Of a stretch of DNA of 64,000 nt, positions 15,083 through 64,000 are shown piece by piece. The stretch is from positions 16,740,001-16,804,000 of the forward strand of contig NC_086108.1 in assembly GCF_963921235.1 (NCBI RefSeq), written 5' to 3'. The notes beneath the pieces were generated by a model that saw only the letters and a program-made list of their open reading frames with translations, was not told where the DNA came from and made no database searches. Each line of letters opens with the position of its first letter. Positions within the stretch are counted from its first letter, which is position 1. Source of the stretch: Mobula hypostoma. Lineage: Eukaryota. The position numbers and the translations under genes are program-made.

Positions 15083-15379
15083 TTGGAAGGGAAGGAGAAC
15101 CTCAGGAATAGTACATTCAACAGAGATGTAGGCCTGAACAAACATTAATAGCTATGAACTCAAGAATCTTCAGGCCCTGTTGAACTTCATTCCAGTGCCT
15201 CAAAAGAATGGTCTGTCAGTGGTTGATGCATTGGTTTTAATCTTCCAAACTCCCCCAAGTTCAGCAAAATTTTCATTACACTGGAATTGTCATAATTTTT
15301 TTTGGAAATTGATGCTGCCTGACTTGCTGAGCTCCTCCAGCATTTTGTGTGTGTTGGTCTAGATTTTGCTCGTGCTGTT

Positions 15380-16549: not shown

Positions 16550-18035
16550 CAGTGGCATGCGAAAGTTTGGGCATCCCTGGTCAAAATTTCTGTTACTGTG
16601 AATAGTTAAGTGAGTAGAAGATGCACTGATCTCTAAAAGTTATAAAGTTAAAGTTGAAACATTCTTTTCAACATTTTAAGCAAGATTAGTGTATTATTTT
16701 TGTTTTGTACAATATTAGAGTGAAAAAAGGAAAGGAGCACCATACAAAAGTATGGGCACCCCAAGACATTTGAGCCCTCAGATAACTTTTACCAAGGTCT
16801 CAGACCTTAATTAGCTTGTTAGGGCTATGGCTTGTTCATAGCCATTGTTAGGAAAGACCAGGTGATGCAAATTTTAAAGCTTTATAAATACCCTGACTCC
16901 TCAAACTTTGACCCAACAATCAGCAGCCATGGGCTCCTCTATGCAGCTGCCTAGCACTCTGAAGATTAAAATAAATGATGCCCACAAAGCAGAAGGCTAT
17001 AAGAAGATAGCAAAGAGTTTTCAGGTAGCTGCTTCCTCAGTTTGTAATGACCTTCAGGAAGATTTAACAGACTCTGGAGTGCTGGTGCACTGTTCTACTG
17101 TGCAGTGACACCTGCACAAATATGACCTTCACAGAAGAGTCATCAGAAGAAAACCTTTCTTGCGTCCTCACCACAAAATTCAGCGACAGAAGTTTGCAAA
17201 GGAACATCTAAACAAGCCTGATGCATTTTGGAAACAAGTTCTGTGGACTGATGAAGTTAAAATAGAACTTTTTGGCCACAATGAGCAAAAGTATGTTTGG
17301 AGAAAAAAGGGTGCAGAATTTCATGAAAAGAACACGTCTCCATCTGTTAAGGATGGGGGTAGATCGATTATGCTTTGGGTTTGTGTTGCAGCTAGTGGCA
17401 TGGGGAACATTTCACTGGTAGAGGGAAGAATGAATTCAATTAAATACCAGCAAATTCTGGAAGCAAACATTACACCGTCTGTAAAAGAGCTGAAGATGAA
17501 AAGAGGATGGTTCTACAACAGGATAATGATCCTAAACACACCTCAAAATCCACAATGGACTACTTCACGAGGTGCAAGCTGAAGGTTTTGCTATGGACCT
17601 CACAGTCCCCCAACCAAAACTTCATTGAAAATCTGTGGATAGACCTCAAAAGAGCAGTACATGCAAGACGGCCCAAGAATCTCACAGAACTAGAAGCCTT
17701 TTGCAAGGAAGAATGGGTGAAAATCCACCAAACAAGAATTGAAAGACTCTTAGCTGGCTACAGGAAGCGTTTACAAGCTGTGATACTTGCCAATGGGGGT
17801 GTTACTAAGTACTGACCATGCAGGGTGCCCAAACTTTTGCTTCAGGCCCTTTTCCTTTTTTGTTATTTTGAAACTGTAAAAGATGGAAATAAAAAAGTAA
17901 TCTTGCTTGAAATATTAAAGAAATGTGTCATCTTTAACTTTATGCCTATTGAAAATCAGGTCATCTTTTACTCGCTTAGCTATTGACAGTAACAGAAATT
18001 TTGACCAGTGATGCCCAAACTTTTGCATGCCACTG
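16550..18035 (+). mobile_element. Tc1-family DNA transposon, internally deleted and frameshifted
   Basis: TA-flanked TIRs CAGTGGCATGCGAAAGTTTGGGCATC / GATGCCCAAACTTTTGCATGCCACTG. DDE motifs VLWTDEVKIELFG, LQQDNDPKH, IENLWIDLKRAV. Confidence 0.94.
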
Positions 18036-18096
18036 TACACTACGTTTACTGCTCTACCTTCATCAATGTGTTTAGTCACATCCTCAAAAAATTCAA

Positions 18097-20087
18097 CACT
18101 CACAACACGCTGGAGAAACTCAGCAAGTCGGGCAGCATCCGTGGAAACGATGAGTCGACGTTTCCGGCCGGAACCCTTCATCAGGACTGAAGAGGGAAAG
18201 GGCAGAGGCCCTATAAAGAAGGTGGGGGAGGGTTGGAAGTAGAAGGCTGGTAGATTCAGTTGAAAAACCAGCAATTTGAAAGACAAAGGGGTGGGGGAGG
18301 GGAAGTAGGGAGGTGATAGGCAGCTGGGGGAGGGGGCAGAGTGAAATAGGGATAGAGGAAGGGAGGGGGAGGGAATTACCGGAAGTTGGAGAATTCTAAG
18401 GTCATACCAAGGGGCTGGAGATTATCTGCACGGTTTATGAGGTGTTGCTCCTCCAACCTGAGTTTAGCCTCATCATGGCAGTAGAGGAGGCCATGTATGG
18501 ACATATCTGAATGGGAATGGGAAGCAGAGTTGAAGTGGGTGGCTACCGGGAGATCCTGTCTGTTGTGGCGGATGGAGCGGAGGTGCTCGACGAAGCGGTC
18601 CCCCAATTTGCGTCGGGTTTCACCGATGTAGAGGAGGCCGCACTGGGAGCACCGGATGCAATAGATGACCCCAACAGACTCACAAGTGAAGTGTTGCCTC
18701 ACCTGGAAGGACTGTTTGGGGCCCTGAATGGTGGCAAGAGAGGAGGTGTAGGGACAGGTGTAGCACTTACGCTTACAGGGATAAGTGCTGGGTGGGAGAT
18801 CCGTGGGGAGGGATGTGTGGATAAGGGAGTCGCGGAGGGACGTGTGGATAAGGGAGTCACGGAGGGACCGATCCCTGCGGAAAGCAGAGAGGGGTGGAGA
18901 GGGAAAGATGTGCTTATGTGCTTAGTGGTGGGGTCCTGTTGAAGGCGGCGGAAGTTGCGGAGGATAATGTGCTGGATCCGGGGGCTGGTGGAGCGGTAGG
19001 TGAGGACAAGGGGAACTCTGTCCCTGTTGTGGTGGCGGGAGGATAGGGTGAAGGCCGAAGTGCAGGAAATGGAGGCTATGCGGGTGAGGGCATCATTGAT
19101 GACAGCAGAAGGGAAACCACGATCCTAAAGAAAGAGGACATTTGAAATGTCCTGGAACGGAAAGTCTCATCCTGGGAGCAGATGCGGTGGAGACAGAGGA
19201 ACTTGGAATAGCGAATGGCATTTTTGCATGTGGCGGGGTGGGAAGAGGTATAGTCGAGGTAGTTATGAGAGTCAGTGGGCTTGTAGAAGACGTCAGCGGA
19301 CAGTCTGTCTCCAGAGATGGAGACCGAGAAATCGAGAAAGGGGAGAGAGGTGTCCGCGATAGACCAAGTGAATTTGAGGGCTGGGTGGAAGTTTGAAGTA
19401 AAGTCGATGAAATTGACGAGCTCAGCATGGATGCAGGAAGCAGCACCAATGTAGTCGTCAATGTACCGAAGGAAAATTTGGGGAGCAGTACCAGAATAGG
19501 TTTGGAGCACAGACTGTTCCACATAACCAACAAAGAGGCAGGCATAGCTGGGGCCCATGCGAGTTCCCATAGCTACACCCTTAGTCTGAAGAAAGTGGAA
19601 AGAGCCAAAAGAGAAGTTATTAAGTGTGAGAACCAGTTCCGCCAACGGGAGGAGGGTAGTGGTGGTGGGGAACTGGTGAGGTCTATTATCCAGGAAGTAG
19701 CAGAGGGCTCTGAGGCCTTCTTGATGGGGAATGGAGATGTATAAGGATTGTACATCCATAGTAAAAATGAAGCCGGGGAACTGGAAGTTATTGAAGAGGT
19801 GGAGGGCATGGGATGTATCCTGGATGTAGGTGGGGAGGGACTGAACTATGGGTGACGAAATGGAGTCCAGGTAGGCAGATACAAGTTCGGTGGGACAGGA
19901 GCAGCAGGAACTATGGGTCTACCTGGACAGTCAAGCTTGTGTATCTTGGGGAGGAGGTAAAACCGAGCGGCACGAGCTTAGTGGCTGAGGATGGTTATGG
20001 TGCGGGAAACAATGGTCTGATGTTTTTGGTGGGGTCCTGTTCCAGGGGTAAGTTACTGATCCCAGCATCTGCAGATTATTTTGTGTT
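18097..20087 (-). mobile_element. Penelope-like element (second subfamily), RT + GIY-YIG, with inverted terminal tail
   Basis: ORF 19076-19759 MDVQSLY..GVAMGTRMGPSYA..RYIDD. ORF 18376-18702 GVIYCIRCSQCGLLYIGET. TSD CTCAAAAAATTCAA at 18083-18096 and 20088-20101. Confidence 0.93.
18153..18188 (-). ncRNA. Minimal type I hammerhead ribozyme motif (PLE pLTR)
   Basis: AGUC-CUGAUGA-AGGGUUCCGGCCG-GAAA-CG-UC^GACU. Core intact, stem II weakened. Confidence 0.7.
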
Positions 20088-23782: not shown

Positions 23783-25675
23783 ACCGTCTCGACTTCACCG
23801 CACCTTGTCCCCATTCACCTCACTCCTTCGGAACGCTCTGCTCTCCACTCCCTCCGCACTAATCCTAACCTTATTATTAAACCCGCTGATAAGGGGGGGT
23901 GCTGTTGTAGTCTGGCGTACTGACCTCTACCTTGCCGAGGCGCAGCGACAACTCGCGGATACCTCCTCTTATTTACCCCTTGATCGTGACCCCACTAAGG
24001 AGCACCAGGCCACTGTCTCCCACATTATCACCGACTTTATCCGCTCAGGGGATCTCCCATCCACTGCTACCAACCTTATAGTTCCCACACCCCGCACTTC
24101 CCGTTTCTACCTCCTACCCAAGATCCACAAACCTGCCTGTCCTGGCCGACCTATTGTCTCAGCTTGCTCCTGCCCCACCGAACTCGTTTCTGCATACCTC
24201 GACACTGTTTTATCACCCCTTGTTCAATCCCTTCCGACCTATGTCGTGACACTTCTCACGCTCTTAAACTTTTCGATGATTTTAAGTTCCCTGGCCCCCA
24301 CCGCTTTATTTTCACCATGGATGTCCAGTCCTTATATACTTCCATCCCCCATCAGGAAGGTCTCAAAGCTCTACGCTTCTTTTTGGATTCCAGACCTAAT
24401 CAGTTCCCCTCTACCACCACTCTGCTCCGTCTAGCAGAATTAGTCCTTACTCTTAATAATTTCTCCTTTTGCTCCTCCCATTTCCTCCAAACTAAAGGTG
24501 TAGCTATGGGCACCCGTATGGGTCCTAGCTATGCCTGCCTTTTTGTTGGGTTTGTGGAACAATCTATGTTCCGTGCCTATTCTGGTATCTGTCCCCCACT
24601 TTTCCTTCGCTACATCGACGACTGCATTGGCGCTGCTTCCTGCACGCATGCAGAACTCATTGACTTTATTAACTTTGCCTCCAACTTTCACCCTGCCCTC
24701 AAGTTTACCTGGTCCATTTCCGACACCTCCCTCCCCTTTCTAGATCTTTCTGTCTCTGTCTCTGGAGACAGTTTATCCACTGATGTCTACTATAAGCCTA
24801 CTGACTCTCACAGCTATCTGGACTATTCCTCTTCTCACCCTGTCTCTTGCAAAAACGCCATCCCCTTCTCGCAATTCCTCCGTCTCCGCCGCATCTGCTC
24901 TCAGGATGAGGCTTTTCATTCTAGGACGAGGGAGATGTCTTCATTTTTTAAAGAAAGGGGCTTCCCTTCCTCCACTATCAACTCTGCTCTTAAACGCATC
25001 TCCCCCATTTCACGTACATCTGCTCTCACTCCATCCTCCCACCACCCCACTAGGAATAGGGTTCCCCTGGTCCTCACCTACCACCCCACCAGCCTCCGGG
25101 TCCAACATATTATTCTCCGTAACTTCCGCCACCTCCAAGGGGATCCCACCACGAAGCACATCTTTCCCTCCCCCCCCCCTGCATTCCGCAGGGATCGCTC
25201 CCTACACAACTCCCTTGTCCATTCGTCCCCCCCATCCCTCCCCACTGATCTCCCTCCTGGCACTTATCCGTGTAAGCGGAACAAGTGCTACACATGCCCT
25301 TACACTTCCTCCCTTACCACCATTCAGGGCCCCAAACAGTCCTTCCAGGTGAGGCATCACTTCACCTGTGAGTCGACTGGGGTGATATACTGCGTCCGGT
25401 GCTCCCGATGTGGCCTTTTGTATATTGGTGAGACCCGACGCAGACTGGGAGACCGCTTTGCTGAACATCTACGCTCTGTCCGCCAGAGAAAGCAGGATCT
25501 CCCAATGGCCACACATTTTAATTCCACATCCCATTCCCATTCTGACATGTCTATCCACGGCCTCCTCTACTGTAAAGATGAAGCCACACTCAGGTTGGAG
25601 GAACAATACCTTATATTCCGTCTGGGTAGCCTCCAACCTGATGGCATGAACATCGACTTCTCTAACTTCCGCTAA
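23783..25675 (+). pseudogene. PLE RT/GIY-YIG ORF with two frameshifts (G-run about 23895; about 24244)
   Basis: Homology moves from ORF 23805..24434 (to ..SLPTYV) into ORF 24164..25675 (RDTSHAL..NIDFSNFR*). The downstream ~475 codons are open. Confidence 0.9.
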
Positions 25676-25950
25676 GGCCCCACCTCCCCCTCGTACCCCA
25701 TCTGTTACTCATTTTTATGCACACATTCTTTCTCTCACTCTCCTTTTTCTCCCTCTGTCCCTCTGAATATACCTCTTGCCCATCCTCTGGGTCACCCCCC
25801 CCTCCTGTCTCATGATCCTCTCGTATCCCCTTTTGCCTATCACCTGTCCAGCTCTCGGCTCTATCCCTCCCCCTCCTGTCTTCTCCTATCATTTTGCATC
25901 TCCCCCTCCCCCTCCAGCTTTCAAATCCCTTACTCACTCTTCCTTCAGTT

Positions 25951-25986
25951 AGTCCTGACGAAGGGTCTCGGCCTGAAACGTCGACT
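25951..25986 (+). ncRNA. Minimal type I hammerhead ribozyme (PLE pLTR)
   Basis: Stem I AGUC/GACU, core CUGACGA, stem II (A)GGGU-CUCG-GCCU, then GAAA-CG-UC with palindromic ACGU. Predicted cleavage after C25982. Confidence 0.85.
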
Positions 25987-27796
25987 GCGCCTCTTCCTAT
26001 AGATGCTGCTTGGCCTGCTGCGTTCACCAGCAACCTTGATGTATGTTGCTTGAATTTCCAGCATCTGCAGAATTCCTGTTGTTTTTATCTACATCACGGT
26101 TCTGTTTACTGATTACAGCTCAGCATTCAACACAATCACACAAGCTCCAAAACCCAGACCTCTGTACCTCCCTTTGCAACTGGATCCTTGACTTCCTCAT
26201 TGGGAGACCACAGTCGGTGCAGATCAGAAATACCACCTCCTCCTTGCTGGGAATCAATACTGGCACACCTCAAGGATATGTACTTAGTCCACTGCTCTAC
26301 TCTCCCCACACCCAGAACTGGGTGGTCAGGCACAGCTCAAACACCATCTATAAATTTGCTTATGACACAACTACTGTCGGCAGAACTACTGTGATGCAGA
26401 GGCGCAGAGGACTGATATCGATCAGCTGGATGAATGCTGTAGCAACAACCTTGCACTCAATATCAGTGAGACCAAGGAACTTTTTGTGGTCTTCAAGAAG
26501 TCCTCATCGAGGGATCGGCAGTGAAAAGGACAAGCAGTTACAAATTCCTGGGTGTCAACATCTTGGAAGATCCATCCTGGTGTTAACTATTGATGCAATT
26601 ACAAAGAATATATGACAGCAACAGCTCAGCTTCATTAGGAGTTTGAGGAGACTTGGTATGTCATCTAAGACTTTCACAAATTTCTTTGGAGGTAACGTGG
26701 AGAAACTTACAACTGGTTACACCACTGTCTGGTATGGCCAGCTCCATAACGGTATGAGCCTCCCCAGTACTGAGGACAGTTTCAAAAGATGATGCCTCAA
26801 AAAGGCGACATCCATCATTATGGACCTCCATCGCCCAGGATGTGCCCTCTTCTCACTTCTACCATCAAGGAGGAGAATCAAATGCCTGAAGGCACACATG
26901 CAAAGTTTCAGGATCAGCTTCTTCCCCTCCACCATCAGATTTCTGAATGGACAATGAACCCACGTACACTACTTCACTATTTTTTGCTCTCTTTTTGCAC
27001 TATTTATTCAAATATAAATATATAGGTATTTTATTGTAATTTATTATTATTGTGTATTGCTGTCACAAAACAATAATTTTCACAACATACTGTATGCCAG
27101 TGATATTAAATCTGATTCTGATTCGCATTCTGCCCACCTGCCTGTCTTTTCAATAGGATGTGTTTCCTTAGAATGATTCTTTGAAAAATTCAATCAAATT
27201 AGTCATACAGGATCCACAGTATTCTCCCTAGCTTTCTCATCAATCTGCTTTTCTATGTTCTATAATACCTTTTCCTACCTTCTTTAATACTTTTCCTTGA
27301 CAGGAGCTGAGCATTCATCTTCTCTACATGCATATATACTGGATTTTAAACAATTAAACAATTTCTGCTCAGTCATGAGATCCCAAAATCTTAATGCAAT
27401 ATGTACTGCATCATTTCCAGATGCTTTTGTCCAATCAGTTATTTCTTCTTTGTGATCTGAAGACAGCACCTACGAGTATTCTGTTTACCTTAGCACGGCA
27501 TCATTGCTGAGCCAAATGTCTTCACCCAGTGCCCAAATGTGTCTCTTCCTTTTCACGGGCAGTTCCTCAGAATGGAAGATGATTTATTTCTACTCCAGTT
27601 CAGAGGAATGCTGAATGCCTATGTATCAATTCTTTTAACATGTTTTTTTAAACAGGAAAGTGAAATGCATGTTTTTTTATCTATCCACCAAAAATTTCCT
27701 GAAATTTGGACAATTTTATCCTTTAAACTTTAAAGGAAGTAGTTCAGAACATTAGAGTCAGAGTTATAGAACACTACAACTCAGAAACAGGCCCTT

Positions 27797-31874: not shown

Positions 31875-33699
31875 ATCTACAAACATCCTTTGTCTTCTGT
31901 AAACAAGACAATTCTGGATCCACAAAACAAGATCTCCTTGGATCCTATGCCTCCTTACTTTCTGAAGGAGTCTTGCATGGGGACCCTTATCAAATGCCTT
32001 ACTGAAATCCATATACACTACATCCACTGCTCTACCTTCATCAATGTGTTTTGTTACATCCTCAAATTATTCAATCAGGTTCATAAGGCAAAATCTTCCC
32101 TTGACAAAGCCATGCTGACTATCTCTAATCAGATGCGTCTCTCCAAATGTTCATAGATCCTGCCTCTCAGGATCATTTCCAACAACTTGTCCACCATTGA
32201 AGTAAGACTCACTGGTCTATAATTCCTGGGTTATCTCTACTCCCTTTCTTGAACAAGGGAACAACATTTGCAACCCTCCAATGCTCCAGTACTTCTCCCG
32301 TCCCTATTGATGATGCAAAGATCATCGCCAGAGGCTCAGCAATCTCCTCCCTCGCTTTCCACAGGAGCCTGGGGTAAATCTCGTCTGATACTGACGACTT
32401 ATCTAACTTAATGCTTTTCAAATTCTCCAGCACATCCTCTTCCTTAACGTCTATAAGCTCAAGCGTTTCAGTCCATTGTTTCAGTCCACAATAGTCAAGG
32501 TCCTTTTCCCTGGTGAATACTGAAGCAAAGTATTCATTAAGTACCTCCGCTACCTCCTCCGACTCTATGCACACATTTCCACTATCGCACCTGATTGGTC
32601 CTATTCTCACACAGCTCATCCTCTTGCTCTTCACATACTTGTACGATGCCTTGGGGTTTTCCTTAATCCTGCTCACCAAGGCCTTCTCATGGCCCCTTCT
32701 AGCTCACCTAATTTCATTAAACTCCTTCCAGGCAACCTTGTAATTTTCTAGAACTCTATCAGTACCTATTTTCTTCAACCTTTTGTCAACTTTTCTTCTT
32801 AACTAGAGTTTCTACATCCTTTGTACACCATGGTTCTTTTACCCTACCATCCTTTCCCTGCCTCAATGGACCATACCTATGCAGAACACCATGTCACATT
32901 TCTGCTGTGCATTTCCCTGAGAACATCTGCTCCCAATTTATGCTCCCACATTCCTGCCTAATAGCATCATATTTCCCCCACCCCAAGTAAATGTTTTCCC
33001 AAATTGTCTGCTCCTAGCCTTCTCCCACCACAACAATCCTATTATTACTGCACAGTTCTAGAATCTGCCTCCCTATCTGATCCTCGATAACCCTGTTACT
33101 AGTGGGTGGGGAGCTTTAAACAACACCCAGTTGAGTTATTGCCCCCTTCCTGTTTCTGACTTCCACTCATACTGACTCAGTAGATAATCCCTCCCTGACT
33201 TCCTCCTTTTCTGCAGCCACTATCCCTGATTAGCAATGCCACACCCCCACTTCTTTTGCCTCCCTCCCTGTCCTTCTTGAAACATCTAAAGCCTGGCACA
33301 CTCAGCAGCCATTCCTGCCCGAGACATCCAAGTCTCTGTAATGGCCATAATGTCATAGTTCCATGTATTCATCCACGCTCTAAGTTCATCCACCTTGTTT
33401 ATGATACTCCTTGCATTAAAATAGATACATCTCAAACCATCTGGCTGAGTGCATCTTTGCTCTACCATGTGCCTATCCTTCCTCACTAACTCCCTACACG
33501 CTGTCTCTACTTGTCCACCAACCACCCCATCCTCTGCCCCTCCACCTTGCTTCCTACCGCTGAAAATCTAGTTTAAACCCTCCCTAATAACATTTGCAGG
33601 CCTTACACCAGGAAATTGGTTCCCCTTGGATTCAAGTGCAACCCATCCTTTTTGTACAGATCACACCTGTCCCAGAAGAGGTCCCAATGATTCAGAAAT

Positions 33700-35773
33700 A
33701 GTTTGGCAAAAGAATAAATCAAGGAAGGTAGTGCACCCGTGGCTGACAAGAGAAATTAGGGATAGTATCAATTCCAAAGAAGTAGCATACAAATTAGCCA
33801 GAGAAAGTGGCTCACCTGAGGACTGGGAGAAATTCAGAGTTCAGCGGAGGAGGACAAAGGGCTTAATTAGGAAGGGGAAAAAAGATTATGAGAGAAAACT
33901 GGCAGAGAACATAAAAACGGACTGTAAAAGCTTTTATAGATATGTAAAAAGGAAAAGACTGATAAAGACAAATGTAGGTCCCCTGCAAACAGAAACAGGT
34001 GAATTGATTATGGGGAGCAAGGACATGGCAGACCAATTGAATAATTACTTTGGTTCTGTCTTCACTAAGGAGGACATAAATAATCTTCCAGAAATAGTAA
34101 GGGACAAAGGGTCCAGTGAGATGGAGGAACTGAGCGAAATACATGTTAGTAGGGAAGTGGTGTTAGGTAAATTGAAGGGATTGAAGGCAGATAAATCCCC
34201 AGGGCCAGATGGTCTGCATCCCAGAGTGCTTAAGGAAGTAGCCCAAGAAATAGTGGATGCATTAGTGATAATTTTTCAAAACTCGTTAGATTCTGGACTA
34301 GTTCCTGAGGATTGGAGGGTGGCTAATGTAACCCCACTTTTTAAAAAAGGAGGGAGAGAGAAACCGGGGAATTATAGGCCGGTTAGCCTAACGTCGGTGG
34401 TGGGGAAACTGCTGGAGTCAGTTATCAAGGATGTGATAACAGCACATTTGGAAAGCGGTGAAATGATTGGACAAAGTCAGCATGCATTTGTGAAAGGAAA
34501 ATCATGTCTGACGAATCTCATAGAATTTTTTGAGGATGTAACTAGTAGAGTGGATAGGGGAGAACCAGTGGATGTGGTATATTTGGATTTTCAAAAGGCT
34601 TTTGACAAGGTCCCACACAGGAGATTAGTGTGCAAACTTAAAGCACACGGTATTGGGGGTAAGGTATTGGTGTGGGTGGAGAATTGGTTAGCAGACAGGA
34701 AGCAAAGAGTGGGAATAAACGGGACCTTTTCAGAATGGCAGGCAGTGACTAGTGGGGTACCGCAAGGCTCAGTGCTGGGACCCCAGTTGTTTACAATATA
34801 TATTAATGACTTGGATGAGGGAATTAAATGCAGCATCTCCAAGTTTGCGGATGACACGAAGCTGGGTGGCAGTGTTAGCAGTGAGGAGGATGCTAAGAGG
34901 ATGCAGGGTGACTTGGATAGGTTGGGTGAGTGGGCAAACTCATGGCAGATGCAATTTAATGTGGATAAATGTGAAGTTATCCACTTTGGTGGCAAAAATA
35001 GGAAAACAGATTATTATCTGAATGGTGGCCGATTAGGAAAAGGGGAGGTGCAACGAGACCTGGGTGTCATTATACACCAGTCATTGAAAGTGGGCATGCA
35101 GGTACAGCAGGCGGTGAAAAAGGCGAACGGTATGCTGGCATTTATAGCGAGAGGATTCGAGTACAGGAGCAGGGAGGTACTACTGCAGTTGTACAAGGCC
35201 TTGGTGAGACCACACCTGGAGTATTGTGTGCAGTTTTGGTCCCCTAATCTGAGGAAAGACATCTTTGCCATAGAGGGAGTACAAAGAAGGTTCACCAGAT
35301 TGATTCCTGGGATGGCAGGTCTTTCATATGAAGAAAGACTGGATGAACTGGGCTTGTACTCGTTGGAATTTAGAAGATTGAGGGGGGATCTGATTGAAAC
35401 GTATAAGATCCTAAAGGGATTGGACAGGCTAGATGCGGGAAGATTGTTCCCGACGTTGGGGAGGTCCAGAACGAGGGGCCACAGTTTGAGGATAGAGGGG
35501 AAGCCTTTTAGGACCGAGATTAGGAAAAACTTCTTCACACAGAGAGTGGTGAATCTGTGGAATTCTCTGCCACAGCAAACTGTTGAGGCCAGTTCATTAG
35601 CTATGTTTAAAAGGAAGTTAGATATGGCCCTTGTGGCTACAGGGGTCAGGGGGTATGGAGGGAAGGCTGGGTTCTGAGTTGGATGATCAGCCATGATCAT
35701 AATAAATGGCGGTGCAGGCTCGAAGGGCCGAATGGCCTACTCCTGCACCTATTTTCTATGTTTCTATGTTTCT
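33700..35773 (+). mobile_element. Young 5'-truncated CR1 LINE with uninterrupted RT reading frame (stop at 35677)
   Basis: About 660 codons without a stop: KSPGPDGLHPRVLKE, YLDFQKAFDKVPH, GVPQGSVLGP, KFADDTKL. (CTATGTTT)n tail. AAAT duplicated at 33696-99 / 35774-77. Confidence 0.96.
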
Positions 35774-40781: not shown

Positions 40782-41124
40782 CTGTGGATGTAAATAGAAA
40801 AATATTACTGATATTCCAGGTTAATTTAGATATTTTAGACCTGACTTGTGTAAATATTTGCTTAGATTCAACATGCACCTATAAGCAAAATATAAGCTGT
40901 TGATGAAAGTTGGCTCACATTGTACCTTTTCAACTTTTGTTCAGGTGTAATACAACTGTAATTGTATCATCCTTTTTTACACCAAATCAGATAACATTAC
41001 TTATTACAGTGTTTTCCTTTTGTACCTTCTAATGGGAAACAATCAATATTTGAAGATGGCACAGCTGAGTTATTTTAACTGCTTTACTTCTCATCAAATT
41101 AGAAAAGCTCTATTTAAGTTAGTT

Positions 41125-41220
41125 ATAAAGTCTGCAAATGCTGGAAATCCAAAGCAATGCACACAATCTATTTCTACAGACGTTGCCTGATCTGCTGGGT
41201 TCCTCTGGCATTTTGTGTGT
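41125..41220. mobile_element. Old inverted PLE pLTR mini-insertion
   Basis: Minus-oriented tail (TCTGCAAATGCTGGAAATCC) joined to a plus-oriented pLTR piece ending GCATTTTGTGTGT. Confidence 0.65.
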
Positions 41221-41549
41221 ATTATTTGGGTTAGTGCCCAAATTATTTGCCTAAAATGTTTACTGTGATTCTAAGCACCATGGTCCAATCATATTTCAAT
41301 GAAGAAAACGCTCATCATACGCAGAGATTATTTTTGCAACTACAGTTGTAAAATTAACTGGATTCTCCTATGAGCAGAACTACTTTCTCCATAAAATACC
41401 TCGTCCAGCTTATTCATTATTTGATAGACTTGTCATCTCCAATTTTTCTCTCTAGTGAACTGGTGAAAAGCTGCAAAATGTGGTACACTTTGTCCAGTAT
41501 TTCATTGTTCTTTTAAGAGTAGAGAAGCAAAACTCTCCACAGTGTGCCA

Positions 41550-45415: not shown

Positions 45416-45610
45416 TCTTCTCCTATCATTTTGGATCTCCCCCTCCCACTTTCAAATCTCTTACTGGCTCTTCCTTCAGTTAGTCCTGACGAAGGGTCTC
45501 GGCCCGAAACATCGACTGTACCTCCTCCTAGAGATGTTGCCTGGCCTGCTGCGTTCACCAGCAACTTTGATGTGTGTTGCTTGAATTTCCAGCAACTACA
45601 GAATTCCTCA
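45416..45610 (+). mobile_element. PLE pLTR fragment containing a hammerhead (45482-45517)
   Basis: AGTCCTGACGAAGGGTCTCGGCCCGAAACATCGACT. A G>A change breaks the ACGU palindrome. Confidence 0.85.
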
Positions 45611-46311
45611 TGATGCAGACTGGGGTGCTTTGGTGAAGAATGGCCCTGTGACCAGATTAGCTAACAGCAGTGTGCTGAACTGAACCAAACTTAATACTAC
45701 TGAACTCTTGGTCTGATGTTGGATATTGTATGTGTTGTTCACTCTATTTTTGCTGTTTGTGCAATTCGTTCTTTTTTCATGCATTGGGTGTTTGGTGACT
45801 TCTTAATCTGGTTCCAAGATATTTCTTTGCTTCATGTCTGTCTGGGGAGGATGAATCTCCAAGTTGTATTCTGTATGCATCATAGACAATAAATATACTT
45901 TGAATCTCTGAAGGGCTTGTTACCGTACTGTATCTGTAATAAAATAAATTGAATACTTTCTAGAATATTTCCACAGATTAAATCATGATTCCCAGAAAGT
46001 GAAAAAACAAATATGACCCACCAAGTTCTGTTACCATTTTCTGAGTTACAGGATTAAGCAGTTTCAGAATTTAAAAACAGCAAAATTTACACTGGATGAC
46101 ATTTCTGCTTCAGATGAAAGTTAAAGATCCAGTATCCAGTTGCACAATTTTGAGACACAACACAGCAGTTTTTCCATTCTAGTGGCCTGAATTTACCCAC
46201 CAAACATTAACACAAACAACAGGAATTCTGCAGATGCTGGAAATTCAAGCAACATACATCAAAGTTGCTGGTGAACGCAGCAGGCCAAGCAGCATCTATA
46301 GGAAGAGGCGC

Positions 46312-46347
46312 AGTCGACATTTCAGGCCGAGACCCTTCGTCAGGACT
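46312..46347 (-). ncRNA. Hammerhead motif, GAAAUGUC variant
   Basis: AGUCCUGACGAAGGGUCUCGGCCUGAAAUGUCGACU on the minus strand. Confidence 0.75.
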
Positions 46348-48445
46348 AACTGAAGGAAGAGTGAGTAAGGGATTTGAGTAAGGGCATACTGACCTCTACC
46401 TTGCTGAGGCGCAGCGACAACTCGCGGATACCTCCTCTTATTTACCCCTCGATCGTGACCCCACTAAGGAGCACCAGGCCATTGTCTCCCACACCATCAC
46501 CGACTTTATCCGCTCAGGGGATCTCCCATCCACTGCTACCAACCTTATAGTTCCCACACCCCGCACTTCCCGTTTCTACCTCCTACCCAAGATCCACAAA
46601 CCTGCCTGTCCTGGCCGACCTATTGTCTCAGCTTGCTCCTGCCCCACCGAACTCGTTTTTCTGCATACCTCGACACTGTTTTATCACCCCTTGTTCAATC
46701 CCTTCCGACCTATGTCGTGACACTTCTCACGCTCTTAAACTTTTCGATGATTTTAAGTTCCCTGGCCCCCACCGCTTTATTTTCACCATGGATGTCCAGT
46801 CCTTATATACTTCCATCCCCCATCAGGAAGGTCTCAAAGCTCTACGCTTCTTTTTGGATTCCAGACCTAATCAGTTCCCCTCTACCACCACTCTGCTCCG
46901 TCTAGCGGAATTAGTCCTTACTCTTAATAATTTCTCCTTTTGCTCCTCCCATTTCCTCCAAACTAAAGGTGTAGCTATGGGCACCCGTATGGGTCCTAGC
47001 TATGCCTGCCTTTTTGTTGGGTTTGTGGAACAATCTATGTTCCGTGCCTATTCTGGTATCTGTCCCCCACTTTTCCTTCGCTACATCGACGACTGCATTG
47101 GCGCTGATTCCTGCACGCATGCAGAACTCGTTGACTTTATTAACTTTGCCTCCAACTTTCACCCTGCCCTCAAGTTTACCTGGTCCATTTCCGACACCTC
47201 CCTCCCCTTTCTAGATCTTTCTGTCTCTGTCTCTGGAGACAGCTTATCCACTGATGTCTACTATAAGCCTACTGACTCTCACAGCTATCTGGACTATTCC
47301 TCTTCTCACCCTGTCTCTTGCAAAAACGCCATCCCCTTCTCGCAATTCCTCCATCTCCGCCGCATCTGCTCTCAGGATGAGGCTTTTCATTCTAGGACGA
47401 GGGAGATGTCTTCATTTTTTAAAGAAAGGGGCTTCCCTTCCTCCACTATCAACTCTGCTCTTAAACGCATCTCCTCCATTTCACGTACATCTGCTCTCAC
47501 TCCATCCTCCCACCACCCCACTAGGAATAGGGTTCCCCTGGTCCTCACCTACCACCCCACCAGCCTCCGGGTCCAACATATTATTCTCCGTAACTTCCGC
47601 CACCTCCAACGGGATCCCACCACTAAGCACATCTTTCCCTCCCCCCTCTCTCTGCATTCCGCAGGGATCGCTCCCTACACAACTCCCTTGTCCATTCGTC
47701 CCCCCCATCCCTCCCCACTGATCTCCCTCCTGGCACTTATCCGTGTAAGCGGAACAAGTGCTACACATGCCCTTACACTTCCTCCCTTACCACCATTCAG
47801 GGCCCCAAACAGTCCTTCCAGGTGAGGCATCACTTCACCTGTGAGTCGACTGGGGTGATATACTGCGTCCGGTGCTCCCGATGTGGCCTTTTATATATTG
47901 GTGAGACCCGACGCAGACTGGGAGACCGCTTTGCTGAACATCTACGCTCTGTCCGCCAGAGAAAGCAGGATCTCCCAGTGGCCACACATTTTAATTCCAC
48001 ATCCCATTCCCATTCTGACATGTCTATCCACGGCCTCCTCTACTGTAAAGATGAAGCCACACTCAGGTTGGAGGAACAACACCTTATATTCCGTCTGGGT
48101 AGCCTCCAACCTGATGGCATGAACATCGACTTCTCTAACTTCCGCTAAGGCCCCACCTCCCCCTCGTACCCCATTTGTTACTCATTTTTTATGCACACAT
48201 TCTTTCTCTCACTCTCCTTTTTCTCCCTCTGTCCCTCTGAATATACCTCTTGCCCATCCTCTGGGTCACCCCCCCTCCTTGTCTTTCTTCCCGGACCTCC
48301 TGTCTCATGATCCTCTCGTATCCCCTTTTGCCTATCACCTGTCCAGGTCTCAGCTCTATCCCTCCCCCTCCTGTCTTCTCCTATCATTTTGCATCTCCCC
48401 CTCCCCCTCCAGCTTTCAAATCCCTTACTCACTCTTCCTTCAGTT

Positions 48446-48481
48446 AGTCCTGACGAAGGGTCTCGGCCTGAAATGTCGACT
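48446..48481 (+). ncRNA. Hammerhead motif, GAAAUGUC variant
   Basis: Identical to the inverted copy at 46312-46347. Confidence 0.75.
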
Positions 48482-49519
48482 GCGCCTCTTCCTATAGATG
48501 CTGCTTGGCCTGCTGCGTTCACCAGCAACTTTGATGTATTAACACAAACAGATTATTTGGTGTAGTGCTTCCTAAATTACAACTATGACTACACTTCAAT
48601 TGCACTTTACTGGTGTTAAAATACTCTGGCATTCTTCTAGGTCATAAAAGGAATAACACAAATCCAAATTGCTGATTTTTATACTGAGCACAAAGGAAGC
48701 CAGAGAAGCGGCTGTTTCTAAGCAAATGTTCAGCACTTGCCTCCATACTGATTCAGTACTGTAAACATCACCATCAGTCTTGTTCACTTCATGAAATGAA
48801 ATCAATTCTTCAAGATAGGTACTAACTGGCATCTTATCCCCTTATATTAATAATTCAGGAAGGTGTTATGATTCGTTGTTTTAGTTTAAAGAGAAGGCGG
48901 AGGATTGTGCAAAATGCATGCTAATTGCTGAAGACGTGAACATTGTTGGTACAGAATATCTATTCTACATCCATTAATTTCAATTGGTAATTCAATGTGT
49001 GAACAGCACGGAGAATTTACAATGTGATATGTACTCTATCATTTAAATGCATGTATTACAACATACTGTCTAATTAACCTAAGTGGCTGATAACCTGCAC
49101 CAGCACATTGGTAATCTTTGCTAGAATTCACAAAGCTGTGCTTTAGAAAATAGAGTACATAGTTACAAAGACGGAATGATTTGAACTTTTAACCTTGAGT
49201 TAGGTCTCAGTCAGGGTGGCAACTGTGTGATTCTTTAAAAATTGATTTATTGGTTATTAGGAGAAAAGTAAACAAATTTCTCCAATCACCAACCAATGAC
49301 CTTTGGTGAAAGGATAACATGAAGAATGACAACAAAAAGATAGCATATTGAAATTATATTCTAGCATAGTTTGGAAAGCACAAAATCAATAACTGTTCTA
49401 AAACACATTAATATCCAAGTGCACATTCGTAATCTGACTTCCCAGAGCAGTCTTGCACATTTAAATCATTCCTTCTCTCCTTTAGGAAGAGCCTGCCAAA
49501 GCAGTGATTAGGAAGTAAA

Positions 49520-49724
49520 TCATGAACACAAGAAAATATGCAAATGATAGAAATCCAAAGCAACACACACAAAATGCTGGAGGAACTCAGCAGGTCAGGC
49601 AGCATCTATGGAAATGAACCAACGGTCGACCTTCCAGGCCGAGGCCCTTCTTCAGAACTGGAAAGTAAGAGGAAAGATGCCAGAATAAAAAGATGGGGAA
49701 GGGGAAGGGGAAGAGGGAGTATGT
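49520..49724 (-). mobile_element. Old solo PLE pLTR
   Basis: Decayed hammerhead (TTCTGAAGAAGGGCCTCGGCCTGGAAGGTCGAC on minus). TSD TGATTAGGAAGTAAA at 49505-19 and 49725-39. Confidence 0.8.
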
Positions 49725-51610: not shown

Positions 51611-51859
51611 TACTAAGACAATCAAGAATGCCTCACTGAATGAGAAGATCGCGGGTGCACCCATCTGAATATGTTTCTATATATAATCTCAGTTGTCACT
51701 TTAAGACAGGCAGACTTAAATTTATGTTAACAGCTTTCATAATATCAAGACACTCCAAACGCATTTTAAAGAACAAAAAGGTATTTAACAAACGTATCAA
51801 ATGAAACATGGCAGCCAATTTGAGCAAAGCAGGCCGTGTCAGAAAAGAGATTTATATTA

Positions 51860-52057
51860 AACACAAGAGATTCTGCAGATCCTGGAAATCCAAAGCAACA
51901 TGCACAAGAGTCTGGAGGAACTCAGGTCAGGCAGCATATATGGAAAAAGAGTAAAAAGTCGCCTTTTAGTTTGAGTCCAGAAGGGTCCGAAATGTTGACT
52001 GTTTATTCTTTTCCATGGATGCTGCCTGACCTGCTGAGTTCCTCCAGCACTTGTGTG
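51860..52057. mobile_element. Old inverted PLE pLTR mini-insertion
   Basis: Minus arm with full tail, junction in a decayed hammerhead (about 51955-52000), plus arm ending CCAGCACTTGTGTG. Confidence 0.75.
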
Positions 52058-56884: not shown

Positions 56885-58449
56885 AATTTTTTAACAAGAT
56901 TTTATAGCTATTGTTGTCTTGTGGTTCCTTTCTCGGTTGTCAGCCATCATTCTGAATGACCATCAAGGAGGTGGGACATCTATCACTCATGGCCCAGAGA
57001 TTATGAGGAGGACTCAGCAGGCTGCTTTGCCATCTACTATCCCAGCAGCTGTTCCTCACCAGCATGGTAGGCTGACTGCATAAAACTTCTGCAAGTAGTC
57101 ATTGGGATCAATCATATTTTCTGCCATCTGACAATGTGACATGGATCTGCTGCACTAATCCCTTAGTAAGATGTCCCATTAGGTCTCTCCATTGTCACTG
57201 TATTACTGGAGTGGGTGTCTGGAATAGAGATTGCCAAATGTGCGAAAGGAAGTAACAAAAAAAGTGAAGGAGAATTTGAAGGGATGAAGAAGTACCGACT
57301 GACATTGAAGGTTTGTTTGCCTGAAGGAGATTTCATCAGATACCTATTATTGAGAAGCTGCCTTTACACCGAATTGTTTCTGGTAGAAGTTTACTCATCT
57401 GTACTTTGGCTATCAATATTAGTGTGCGCAAATTTGCACATTAGACAAAGAATCTGAAATGCAAGTATAAGAGGCAAAAAATGGCAATTTGGGAGTACAG
57501 CAAAACTACACCAGAAATCAACACTTTCAATCTAAAAAATCTTTCAGCAAATTCAACAATGGCTAGGAAACTGCAGCTTTTGCATTAGTGAATAAAAACA
57601 TAATTATATCTTACACCTATCCACATCAAGACAGCTTTACAAAATTGTATGTAAAATATGCACAAGGAATAGAATGTAACCTATCTATAATTGATCACTG
57701 CCTACCCAATTGATTTAAAGAGCAGCTATTATTATCTCTAAGCATAATTCCTTCCCTTTTCCAACTTAATAGATAGTCAACATCTTTTGCAGCTTTGAAC
57801 TACAAATTCATGTGACTGCAAAAACTCAGTGAATCAGTGAGGAACCTATTTAACCTGCTGTTTTGAAATTTTGTTTTACTCTTGTCAGGCTTCACTATCT
57901 TCCAGGCTACAATTTTTCTATTAATATGAGACATAATTTGAAATCATAAAATAGACAAGATAGGTGAATACCAATACATATGCCATTCATTACTGTAAGA
58001 CAACAATTCCACTTTTTTGGAAAAACACTAAGGTTAAGTGAATACTTCCGAAGCTCAGCTGTCAAAGCAACAGCTCAAAGCTACTGTCAAACGACCTTGC
58101 TGCAGTGAAGCAAACAAAGGAGAAATGCAAATATAGATGCACATAGAGACCTTAGTTCACTCCCTGCAATTCGACCGAATTGCAGTAAAAAGAAGATCAG
58201 AAAAAAAAGCAAATCCTTTCGGAATGACCACTCCCAGTTGAATTTAGCTTAAGGATTTCACTCAGTGCTGCTGCTATTTTAAACGCTGGGAACAGTAGCA
58301 ACAGATTTTATGAATTTTGTAAAAATTTCTTGAGCAACCTATTTAATGCGCTTTTTTGTAATACAAGTTAAACTAACTAGTTCACATGGCCAACCAATTG
58401 ATACCAACTGCAAAAGATTCTAGATGAAAAAAATCATTATTTAAACAGA

Positions 58450-58638
58450 AACAACAGGAATTCTGCAGATGCTGGAAATTCAAGCAACACACATCAAAGT
58501 TGCTGGTGAACGCAGCAGGCCAGGCAGCATCTCTAGGAAGAGGTACAGTCGACGTTTCAGGCCGAGACCCTGACGAAGGGTTACCTCTTCCTAGAGATGC
58601 TGCCTGGCCTGCTGCATTCACCAGCAACTTTGATGTGT
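58450..58638. mobile_element. Inverted PLE pLTR mini-insertion
   Basis: Minus arm 58450-~58571, plus arm to 58638. TSD ATTATTTAAACAGA at 58436-49 and 58639-52. Confidence 0.92.
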
Positions 58639-60037
58639 ATTATTTAAACAGATATTGTTGACTATTTATCGAAATCAAACCTTTTCTGATGTTCAATTTT
58701 CAACTAATTTCTGGCCTATGACCAATTATTTAATAGCGAGAACAATTTCCTTGTTTCCCTATAGCAGATGACATCAAGAAAGAAAGAAAATAGCTTTTTC
58801 ATGTCTCAGTGAACCATATAAACATTAAAAGCTCAATGTTCAATCTCTGCCTTATGGAAGTTCAAAGTACATTTAATACCAAAGTATGTATACCATAAAC
58901 AACTTTGGGATTCATCTTCTTACAGGTAGCCACAAAACAAAGAAACACAACACTACAAAGACAGTCATTCAATGTGTGAAAAAATAACTTGTGCAAACAA
59001 TAAAAAAGCGAAAAGCAATCCACACAACATGAACTGCAGAATTCCTGAAAGTAAATTCACAGTCATGAAGCTAGTTCAGCTCCGCAGCAGGCCACAGACT
59101 CAGAGCGAGGTTCAATGCTGAGGTGAGTAAAACCTCATGGAGCAGTGAGATGAACACCAGTTTGTCCTCTGCCCTCGGCCTCAAAGCCTTAATCTTTTTA
59201 ATCTGGCTCAGCGTTTCAATCAGCCAAATATCGGTTTGTTATCTGCTCTTGGGACCAGGCCCTGCCACTTTAATCCAGTCCAAAGTTTCAGTCTGGGCTC
59301 AAGTCCACTCTAGCAATGACTGCTGTGGCCATACCTGCATTCTCGATTCTAGTTAACCAAACATTTCAGGTTACCACAAAAAAGCTAGGTTGTACAAACG
59401 GTTCAAAAGCACACCTCTCAGCAGGAAATTGCAGGCTTGCAATTGCAATGATTGTAGTTTTGAAGAAGTATATTTAGTAGAATTGTTAGTAGTTTTGTTA
59501 GCTGCCTGCAAAGTGTCACCTTGTCTCGCCAGTGCCATCTTCTGCTACCGGTAATGTATAGTAGCGGACAGTAGAGAGCTTGGTGTCCTTGGGTTACTGA
59601 GCAGAAATGAGAGAGTGAAAATAGTCATTGTTTCTGCTTTTAGTATTTTTTGGTGATATTTGTTAGATGTCTGCTATGAAATGTAAAACAGATTATATTC
59701 TGTTGTAAAATACATTATATTCTGGTGAGAAAGTCCAATGCATTCCATCCTACCAAAAAGGTCAAAATTCACATTCAAGATACTGGTCAAGCTTTACTTG
59801 AGCAAGATATCAGAGATTGCCCATTGTCAATGTACTTGCCAAGGCACCACATGAAAAACTTACTTTCAAATGAAGTAACCAGTCGGCGATCAAAAAGACA
59901 CAAATGATTCAGTGCAGATTGCTTGGTGTGACTTTTCCTGCCATGGTCTTCAAAATCTTTAAAGAAAAGTCAGTTTCCAAACATTCTAATACCAATAAGT
60001 GGGGGACGCAAAACCAAACAAACTGGAAACCTTGGTA

Positions 60038-62540
60038 CAGGTCCACAGTCCTTTATCCGAAATTCTGAAATCCAAAAAGCTCCAAAAACCGATGTCTTTT
60101 TCGCCAACAGCTGACGTCACTCAGGTGTGACGTGGCAGCACTAGCAGAGCCTGCCAGACATCAGTTGTGGCTCAGTGCTCGTACTGGTTACACGTGCATT
60201 TGCTGTTCGCTGATATTTTGTGTTCACTGTTGACTTTGTGTTTAATTTCACTGTGAAAATGTCAAAAAGAGCTGCAGATACCCCTATGGGTAACAATGAG
60301 AAAAAGAGAAGGAATCTTCTCTATCAATAACGCAGAAAGTGGAGTTATTGCAGAAGCTTGACCGTGGTGTATCTGTGTGGCACCTTACTGAAGAATGGCA
60401 TCGGAACTACCACTGTATATGATTTAAAGAAACAGAAAGACAAGTTACTGAAGTTTTATAGTGAAAGTGATGACCATAAACTAATGAAAAATAGGAAAAC
60501 AATGTATAGGGCAAAAAAGGAAGATCTTGACTGTGTGTTGATTGAATGGATTAGACAAAGAAGAAATGAATGTATGCCGCTGAATGGCATGTTGATCATG
60601 AAACAAGCTAGAATATACCACGAAGAACTGAACGTTGAAGGTGAGTGTCAATATTCGGAGGGTTGGCTGCAGTAATTTAAGAAGCGTCATAGTGTAAAAT
60701 ATCTGAAATTCTGTGGTGAAAAAGCTTCTGCTGATCATGAAGCAGCTGAAAATTACATTGACGAATTTGCCAAGATAGTATCTGATGTAAACCTCAGCCC
60801 TAAACAAATTTACAATGCTGATGAAACAACTTTGTATTGGCGCTATGTTCCTAGAAAAACATTAACAACGGCTGATGAGAGAGCACCAACAGGTTTTAAA
60901 GATGCTAAGGACAGGTTAACTATTCTTGCGTGTGCCAATGCAGCAGGCACACACAAAGTGAAGTTGGCAGTGATTGGAAAAAGCCAACATCCGAGATTTC
61001 TGCAAGGTGTACGCAATTTACCTGTGCATTATTATGCAAACAAGAAAGCATGGGTAACCCGAGAAATGTTTTCTGACTGGTTCAATAACTACTTTGTATC
61101 AGCGGCATGAGCTCATTGCAAGCAAGCTGGACTGGAAAAAAACTGTAACATTTTATTGTTCCTGGACAACTGCTCCACACATCCCCCTGCCGAACTTCTT
61201 GTGAAAAGTCATGTTTTCGCAATTTACTTGCCCCAGTGTGACATCTGTATTACAGCCTTGTGACCAAGGAATTTTACGCTCCATGAAGAGCAAGTGTAAA
61301 GACTACTTTTTTGAATTGTATACTTTCTGCAGTCAACAGAGGAGTAGGAATTCAAGACTTCCTGAAAGAGTTCAATGTTAAGGATGCCATTTACGCAGTT
61401 GCTAATGCTTGAAATGATGTTGATGAATTAACATTAACAAATGCTTGGCAGAGACTTTGGCCTACAATGATGCTTGATGTAAATGAACCTACAGATCAAG
61501 ACTTTGAAGGATTTCGTGTCACTAATGAGATGATGATATCAAACCTCGTAATTTACGCTAAAATGTTATCGAACAAAAGTGTAAATAAGTTAGAGGAAGC
61601 TGACATCGAAGAAATGCCGAACATCGACAATGATGCACCTATTGTGCATTCCTTGAGTGATGGGGAAATTACTGAAAAGGTGTTAAATACAGATAAGCAT
61701 GAAGATAGTAGTGATGACGCTGTCATAGTGAATACAGGTGAAAAAATCCCCATAGTCGATATGGTGAAAATGTGTGATCAATTAATTGCTGGCCTTGAAC
61801 AACATGCATTTATCAGTGAGTAAGAGATTCTGGCAGTTTACTCAGTTAAAGAAAGATTGCTTAGACAACCTATGTTAATGAGACAAATGACACTTGAAGA
61901 AGTCTTTAAAAACGCCATCTGTCGTAGTGCTGCTTCATATCTTGAGAATCCTGTTCCTGGCCTATCAGGTACCTGTAGCGTATTTAGCTTTGTTTGTCAG
62001 GCATAATGCAACTTAACTAGCTTAGTTTGAACCTGTATATGTCCTAGAGCATTTACGTTATTTACCATGTGTTTGATTCCGTTGGTTTGAAGATGTATAT
62101 TTTTACGTTTTATTGAATGTTTAATAAAACTGTAATAGTATTTGTAGCCCTTATTTATCCCACTTAACTATACGTTTTGTGTTTAATTTCATTGTGAAAA
62201 GGTCAAAAAGAGCGTGGATAGGGAAAACCCGTAAGTTCTCTCTCCAGCACTCGTTGTTTGAGCACACAGACTTTTTTTCTTGTCATTATTCCCCAAACAA
62301 CACAGTATAACAACTATTTACATAGCATTTACATTGTATTAGGTATTATAAGTAATCTAGAGATGATTTAAAGTATACGGGAGGATGTGCGTAGGTCCGG
62401 AGCTCTCCCGGGTCCTAAAGTCCACCCGCACAGAGGCAGGTTAATTATCAATATAATTATCAATTTTCTAAAATCCGAAAAATTCTGAATTCCAAAATGC
62501 AACTGGCCCCAAAGATTTCGGATAAGGGATTGTGGACCTG
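60038..62540 (+). mobile_element. Full-length pogo/Tigger DNA transposon with decayed transposase (about 60259-61980)
   Basis: TA-flanked TIRs CAGGTCCACAGTCCTTTATCCGAAAT / ATTTCGGATAAGGGATTGTGGACCTG. MSKRAADTPMGN.., SEGWL, IYNADET, KDRLTILACANAAG, FLDNCSTH, QPCDQG. Stops and frameshifts. Confidence 0.94.
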
Positions 62541-63440: not shown

Positions 63441-63891
63441 TGATAATTATCTTGAGATTCAATTTCTTTCAGTCATTTACAGGAAAAAATGCCAGCGATT
63501 ACCTGTCAGGATTTGATTCCCACTGCTGTTTGTTAGGAGTTTACACGTTCAGCCTGTGACCACATGGGTATCCTCTCCAAATATGTATGGTCAGGGCCTG
63601 TGTTAGTGCACTGTGGGCATGCTATATTGGTGCTGGAAACATCACAACATTTGTGAGCTGCTTGCAGCACAATCCTAGGGCTATGTTGGTCGTTGACATA
63701 ATATAAAACACTTCACAGTATGTTTCAATGTACATGTGACAAATAAAGCTCATTTATTCAATCTACGGAAAAAGCAGAACAAATTATCTCCACAAACAAC
63801 AGGAATTCTGCAGATGCTGGAAATTCAAGCAACATACATCAAAGTTGCTGGTGAACGCAGCAGGCCAGGCAGCATCTATAGGAAGAGGCGC

Positions 63892-63927
63892 AGTCGACGT
63901 TTCAGGCCGAGACCCTTCGTCAGGACT
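63892..63927 (-). ncRNA. Minimal hammerhead ribozyme
   Basis: Exact reverse complement of the 25951-25986 motif. Confidence 0.85.
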
Positions 63928-63963
63928 AGTCCTGACGAAGGGTCTCGGCCTGAAACGTCGACT
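63928..63963 (+). ncRNA. Minimal hammerhead ribozyme
   Basis: Identical to the 25951-25986 motif. Confidence 0.85.
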
Positions 63964-64000
63964 GCGCCTCTTCCTACAAATTATCTCCACGATAGTTTTC

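Follow-up and report, generated by a model that had tools for sequence, protein, structure and literature searches.

Inverted copies of a Penelope-like element in Mobula hypostoma join a tailed end to an end about 38 nt shorter

A Penelope-like element and its copies in the window

The window (the whole 64-kb stretch of Mobula hypostoma DNA that was analysed) contains inverted and non-inverted copies of one repeat. Element positions are counted from the last T of the tail (..TGTTT), which is coordinate zero; an end at -9 or later is called L (tailed) and an end at -52 to -24 is called S (shorter). The features are as follows.

46206..46218, plus strand: left TSD copy of insertion A, 13 nt
46219..46377, minus strand: tailed (L) arm of insertion A, 159 nt, element -5 to -163
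46248..46269, minus strand: hairpin predicted for the young subfamily, without covariation, stem -55..-50 / -39..-34
46312..46347, minus strand: minimal hammerhead-like motif in the L arm of insertion A, found by eye, no Rfam match
46378..46382: head-to-head junction insert of insertion A, 5 nt
46383..48537, plus strand: tail-less (S) arm of insertion A, 2155 nt, -2174 to -42 (-40 with microhomology)
46551..48148, plus strand: ORF, 5'-truncated and frameshifted, with RT, CX4CxxC linker and GIY-YIG endonuclease
48446..48481, plus strand: minimal hammerhead-like motif in the S arm of insertion A, first base at -133
48538..48550, plus strand: right TSD copy of insertion A, 13 nt
18097..20087: insertion B, older subfamily, TSD 14 nt at 18083-18096 / 20088-20101
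58450..58638: insertion C, TSD 14 nt at 58436-58449 / 58639-58652; L arm 58450-58571 (minus), S arm 58584-58638 (plus)
63794..63975: insertion D, TSD 15 nt; L arm 63794-63927 (minus), second arm ending at -86
41124..41222: old inverted L/S copy, decayed TSD with 11 of 13 positions matching (41111-41123 / 41223-41235)
51858..52057: old inverted L/S copy, no TSD found
23783..26086, plus strand: non-inverted L-ended copy of the young family, 10-nt TSD, which served as the reference

At the four places where an earlier note on this DNA had put TSD-bounded insertions (A to D), we found TSDs of 13, 14, 14, and 15 nt, respectively, enclosing arms that are opposite and outward-pointing. The same note had listed two older copies, at 41125 and 51860, as lacking a clean TSD; the latter has none, and the former has the decayed TSD given above. 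The tail is kept on one arm in all six inverted copies. The tail-less arm ends at -42 to -40 in A, at -39 to -36 in B, at -40 in C and, by eye, at about -40 in both older copies, D being the exception (-86); the statement that five of the six second arms stop about 40 nt short is correct for the window, and as a fixed point is not confirmed in the wider sample. The L arm of insertion A shares microhomology of up to 6 nt with its TSD, and 124 nt are identical between the two arms of this insertion. Insertion B has a long S arm on the minus strand and a tail-only L arm of ~30 nt on the plus strand, the two being without overlap, and both arms of insertion D have their 5' start at about -133. Further non-inverted copies of the same element lie at 1147-1271, 4270-4419, 45416-45608, 49520-49724, and 15308-15366 (four L-ended, one S-ended).

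Pfam matches follow the order RVT_1 then GIY-YIG in the ORF; RVT_1 (E-values of 5e-6 to 9e-5) falls short of its curated cut-off, and GIY-YIG passes its own. In the copy at 24164 both RT and GIY-YIG lie within one 503-aa frame. The translation contains CKRNKCYTC (a CX4CxxC linker) between RT and endonuclease, and a CX2-5CxxC linker at this place is a Neptune/Nematis trait (PMC8557442). The tandem unit measures 3497 nt and shows the partial-tandem/pLTR organisation of EN+ Penelope-like elements, and 5'-truncated copies occur inverted with a 30-40-nt tail at one end (median L-S offset of 38 nt). Judged from its sequence, the repeat is an abundant RT plus GIY-YIG Penelope-like element with a linker of the Neptune/Nematis type, and vertebrate occurrence (bioRxiv 2026.07.22.740005) would favour Neptune over Nematis. 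A sequence search of the ORF against solved structures returned no match. The minimal hammerhead-like core (CUGANGA/GAAA) at 48446-48481 was spotted by eye and is a putative ribozyme; an Rfam search of the 64-kb window returned no family at the gathering score, hammerhead included.

Pairing and position of the two ends

The source genome (3.48 Gb, 200 contigs) was surveyed through 160 stretches of 10 kb spaced evenly over 14 contigs (the even sample), to which were added 30 loci picked by the tail, 30 picked by the 5' part of the ORF, and 20 longer stretches around the latter 30. The even sample gave 378 arms by profile, 87 of which were assigned to 58 TSD-bounded records. Its 34 TSD-bounded inverted copies comprised 31 that join L to S, two that join L to an earlier end, and one that joins S to an end at -11, which is probably a diverged L, with no L/L and no S/S copy. 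Nearly all of these inverted copies join the tailed end with an end ~38 nt shorter, and under independent choice of ends the probability of 31 L/S copies is 0.5^31 = 5e-10. When TSDs were ignored, 59 adjacent head-to-head pairs (versus three tail-to-tail neighbours) consisted of 47 L/S, eight L plus other, three S/S, and one other, with no L/L pair against 12.8 expected; none of the three S/S pairs has a TSD, and one of them is a nested insertion. A looser scan gave a TSD score of at least 10 in 50 of 188 real arm pairs versus 5 of 588 random pairs, and inspection of those 50 by eye (tail-selected loci and window included) assigned 44 to L/S and four to L plus other, leaving two doubtful. The filtered TSD scan missed six older L/S copies (L034, L055, L079, L096, L166, L184), misfiled L150 as simple, and returned some simple-S rows that are false or have a tiny L arm (L055, L082, L170). 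Simple (single-arm) copies with their own TSD numbered 14 S-ended and 17 L-ended (even sample: 11 and 5, some rows doubtful). Since S-ended simple copies have a TSD of their own, S is likely a priming site.

End positions were compiled from 50 L/S insertions (31 from the even sample, nine tail-selected, seven long, and three in the window), in which S ends span -51 to -32 (median -38, sd 4.1 nt) and L ends span -5 to +8 (sd 3.3). Uniformly distributed arm ends, which the earlier note had named as evidence against its proposal, were not what we found: the ends of 185 strong arm matches in the even sample fell at -9 or later in 114, at -47 to -24 in 60, between these in nine, and earlier in two. 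Its breakpoint at the 3' edge of a hairpin loop (loop -49 to -40; 3' strand -39 to -34) turned out to be a zone with an sd of 4 nt rather than a fixed point. S ends compatible with -42 to -39 numbered 10 of 50 (5 of 31 in the even-sample subset), and 34 of 50 (23 of 31) lie at -38 or later, which places them within the 3' stem strand or past it; the window examples sit on the early side of the zone. Among the loose ends listed from short-read contigs of two organisms, the best supported were at 0 and at -33 to -35, chance extension included.

The case for a site defined by this structure is weak as well. The pairs of the hairpin, which is without covariation, have probabilities of 0.86-0.96 in the young subfamily and of at most 0.08 for its register in three other subfamilies, and other subfamilies fold differently yet use the same zone. 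The claim that the arrangement holds across subfamilies stands for the S zone, which is the same in every subfamily with data, and not for the hairpin as written, which is confined to the young subfamily. A consensus fold of 28 copies lacks the hairpin and shows no compensatory pair, and the terminal 147 nt fold no better than shuffled sequences (z = -0.43). Structure may nonetheless help to set the S site. A 9-bp stem between the region around -85 and the tail (element -88 to -18), which requires the tail, was predicted in every sampled subfamily, with one-sided changes present and no compensatory ones.

In 19 of the 30 loci picked by the 5' part of the ORF, the terminal repeat, tail included, leads without interruption into the beginning of the ORF; the remaining loci are truncated further downstream. 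This read-through and the L scatter of -5 to +8 leave without support the idea that one arm was primed at the RNA end, which is also at odds with the Anolis element PAc, where both start sites are internal in vitro (PMC11167929). Some transcripts may have their 3' ends at L. The L and S zones are both U/G-rich. In a single case, a tandem junction (L230:4386; G000:C9 near 16031400), a cDNA that had stopped at -569 is joined to a new copy starting at -34, indicating a template jump that also landed in the S zone.

Target site and relation of the arms

The TSD of L/S copies measures 14 nt in 26 of 48 and 13-15 nt in 38 of 48 (mean 14.0 nt), and that of simple copies is shorter and broader (mean 13.1 nt; n = 31, P = 0.003). 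A common motif lies outside both nicks, with A at -8, -7, -6, and -3 in 58, 61, 51, and 60 of 100 half-sites, respectively (background 0.29), and T at -6 in 5 of 100. No difference was visible between L-side and S-side half-sites, and a like motif on both sides fits two equivalent nicks. Microhomology to the target averaged 1.23 at L (n = 43; null 0.64) and 1.45 at S (n = 42; null 0.59). At their 5' junctions, simple copies often begin with brief stretches copied again from the TSD or its surroundings (L011, L105, L112, L229), a pattern reminiscent of templated end joining.

We then compared the two arms within elements. At subfamily-diagnostic sites, the arms of 31 young elements agree in 201 of 216 cases (non-CpG sites: 148 of 161), versus 0.56-0.57 for shuffled arms (maximum 0.79 in 3000 shuffles); 13 non-CpG sites are discordant, and some elements have several discordant sites (L010, 4 of 14). 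Such shared variants could also result if one arm had converted the other, or if a single source locus had supplied two RNAs. Partner arms were no closer to one another than to whichever other copy was nearest (15 of 34, P = 0.07). Arm lengths are coupled, with 25 elements having both arms short, 12 both long, and two mixed (n = 39, P = 2e-8), in a test that omitted seven complex and four unparsed elements, two of which (B and L039) are long-S/short-L. Of 46 elements, 15 have an S arm that extends further 5' than the L arm, 14 show the opposite, and in 17 the two are equal within 20 nt. Head-to-head junctions (n = 46) showed overlaps of at least 2 nt in 21, near-blunt joints in 12, and inserts in 13.

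The arms overlap on the template in 45 of 46 parsed elements, insertion B of the window being an additional non-overlapping case, which bears out the proposal that most insertions copy one sequence twice. In L1 twin priming, an inversion within a single TSD arises when the other DNA end also primes on the RNA; it does so at variable positions upstream of the cDNA made first, and the arms are therefore adjacent. The Mobula element is alike in that a second end would prime and the inversion lies within one TSD; it differs in that the second priming would take place in a defined zone 38 nt from the first, the sequence is copied twice, the arms overlap instead of being adjacent, and there is no poly(A) tail.

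Short arms have their 5' starts at -137 to -127 in 20 of 54 cases, a hot spot at the first bases of stem I of the hammerhead-like motif. Cleavage at the predicted hammerhead cut was rejected as the source of 5' ends, as 3 of 54 short arms start at -106 to -96. These bases match an initiator-like YYANWYY, and a transcription start at -137 to -127 would be our guess. One arm of another element (L016:1275-2162) contains 266-nt units (-133 to +133) repeated head to tail, as if copied from a small RNA circle, or by repeated jumps on an RNA, made up of the hammerhead-like motif, tail, and ORF start; splicing was dropped as the source of the +133 to -133 junction, there being no GT after +133.

Priming at both target ends, rival explanations, and known systems

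Our preferred reading, which we hold with a probability of roughly 0.6, is that a dimer nicks the two strands about 14 nt apart and that a single RNA serves as template for both 3' ends, which prime within it at two internal zones separated by about 38 nt. The earlier note's proposal that both ends of the target prime draws support from the L/S pairing, the narrow range of the TSD, and the symmetric motif, as well as from microhomology at both ends and from the fact that either arm may be the longer. We infer the dimer, the single RNA, and the steps below from the end products, in which the two priming events have no readable order. Points against our reading are the 13 discordant sites, partner arms that are no closer to one another than to other copies, the three adjacent S/S pairs, the share of arms in the even sample that could be tied to a TSD-bounded record (87 of 378), and PAc start sites that do not differ between strands in vitro. 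Each subunit would contribute one GIY-YIG domain and nick one strand, leaving 3' overhangs, and one RT site would sit on the L zone and the other on the S zone, with the exact start base set partly by 1-6 nt of pairing with the U/G-rich RNA. The two antisense cDNAs would be joined head to head via microhomology or small inserts and then filled in, and failed extension at one end would yield a simple L-ended or S-ended copy. Where both arms are short, the pair of sites close to the 5' end of the RNA (about -133) would have been used, and where they are long, the pair in the downstream repeat copy. A more detailed version, which we put forward tentatively and rate at somewhat below even odds, has two RT sites loading in tandem 38 nt apart on the single RNA and a symmetric cut with a 14-nt stagger; both ends would be extended at once, with the trailing RT displacing the leading cDNA, so that the tail would be the footprint that separates the RTs, and double priming would as a rule yield the inverted pLTR.

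Alternatively, each subunit of an asymmetric dimer might carry its own RNA molecule, one placed at L and the other at S, so that the two ends prime on separate templates; we regard this as unlikely while granting it more weight than any other rival. Two RNAs would explain the pairing, the TSD, and the symmetric motif equally well and need no strand displacement, and several discordant sites in some elements (L010) and arm starts that are often far apart would suit them; the concordance of 148/161 versus 0.57 and the short-short coupling, however, demand that both RNAs be of the same source and length class. An improbable alternative is self-priming, close to a hypothesis in print (PMC3846280), in which the 3' end of a single cDNA snaps back and copies itself and S marks a stop or a resolution by the endonuclease. 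Near-palindromic junctions, the arm starts that coincide within 20 nt in 17 of 46 elements, and high arm identity are what it would produce. Yet in the 15 of 46 elements whose S arm reaches further 5', the tail is on the L arm only (A and B in the window), and an S arm that is longer together with a tail found only on L means that neither arm was copied from the other; S-ended copies with no second arm also carry TSDs, and S has microhomology to the target. Fold-back is contradicted as a general route and survives for the palindromic subset only.

We give still less credence to a true RNA 3' end for one primer combined with a hairpin-loop fixed point for the other. The sharper L peak, the good prediction of the hairpin in the young subfamily (0.86-0.96), and the start of PAc in a stem-loop (PMC11167929) speak for this combination, against which stand the read-through in 19 of 30 loci, L ends as late as +8, S ends with an sd of 4 nt mostly in the 3' stem strand, and a hairpin that is missing from the cross-subfamily consensus and whose register is unpaired in three other subfamilies. 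Hardly credible is an assembly artefact or a pair of independent adjacent insertions: although none of the examined short-read contigs spans a whole insertion, a single TSD encloses both arms, and head-to-head neighbours outnumber tail-to-tail ones by 59 to 3. The outer junctions of A and C are all crossed by short-read contigs that match exactly; these reach 15-26 nt (fewer than 31) into the insertion and probably stem from the sample used for the assembly. The left junction of C is present in a second organism. Minus-to-plus joints from other copies are present in the short-read contigs of both organisms. An empty allele, sought in public contigs, was absent among the matches listed.

The feature is real and its architecture is known, with a start-site chemistry known from a sister clade. 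EN+ Penelope-like elements with inverted pLTRs, a 30-40-bp tail, and TSDs are described for Pen2a_Av of Adineta (PMC3846280) and in a general scheme (PMC8557442, Fig. 2), and inverted pLTRs, a one-end tail, TSDs, and paired hammerheads on opposite strands are in print (PMC8557442, PMC3846280, PMC4209133, PMC8969392, bioRxiv 2026.07.22.740005). The Mobula element resembles the Adineta type in its head-to-head arms, one-end tail, TSD, and partial tandems, and has a putative hammerhead motif in the repeat. Its TSD is ~14 nt, versus 8-10 nt in the Adineta-type reports, and a symmetric target motif is found on the Mobula side; these papers describe the tail as optional or often one-sided, whereas the pairing was counted here (31/34, no L/L, no S/S).

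PAc, a Poseidon element of Anolis (Frangieh et al., 2024; PMC11167929), cuts and extends both strands in vitro, and its two internal start sites bracket the tail downstream of the hammerhead; start sites did not differ between the strands in vitro, and a dimer is predicted. The Mobula element appears alike in its two start zones around the tail, with which its read-through and genomic ends agree. In contrast to Penelope/Poseidon (PAc), it has the CX4CxxC linker, and its start zones are U/G-rich in the sense strand with enriched 1-6-nt microhomology, whereas those of PAc are AC-rich. Both the inverted pLTR with a one-sided tail and the two internal starts with two-strand extension in vitro (PAc) are thus already published. 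How the inverted repeats and the tail of PLEs arise is an open question according to PMC8557442. PMC11167929 leaves what follows the first priming event unvalidated, and its main text and supplementary text mention neither inverted copies nor per-molecule pairing of sites. Strict L/S pairing, a symmetric motif at both nicks, and arms that share variants were not found among the titles and abstract openings of the papers listed, nor was double priming on one RNA; subscription work may hold more on each.

The counts turn a known picture into rules that are testable in the existing PAc assay, namely one L plus one S per doubly extended target, a single RNA for both arms, a 14-nt stagger, and a symmetric site. 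If true, they would mean that telomerase's closest relatives retrotranspose by a route distinct from the TPRT of LINEs. For annotation, such copies resemble MITEs or fold-back elements but would be one-off insertion products.

Other repeats are also present in the window. A 701-codon open frame at 33572-35677 belongs to an apparently young RT-type LINE, which we take to be CR1-like, and remnants at 12349-12828, 17109-17815, and 60676-61823 presumably derive, by their motifs, from transposases resembling the Tc1/mariner and pogo/Tigger types.
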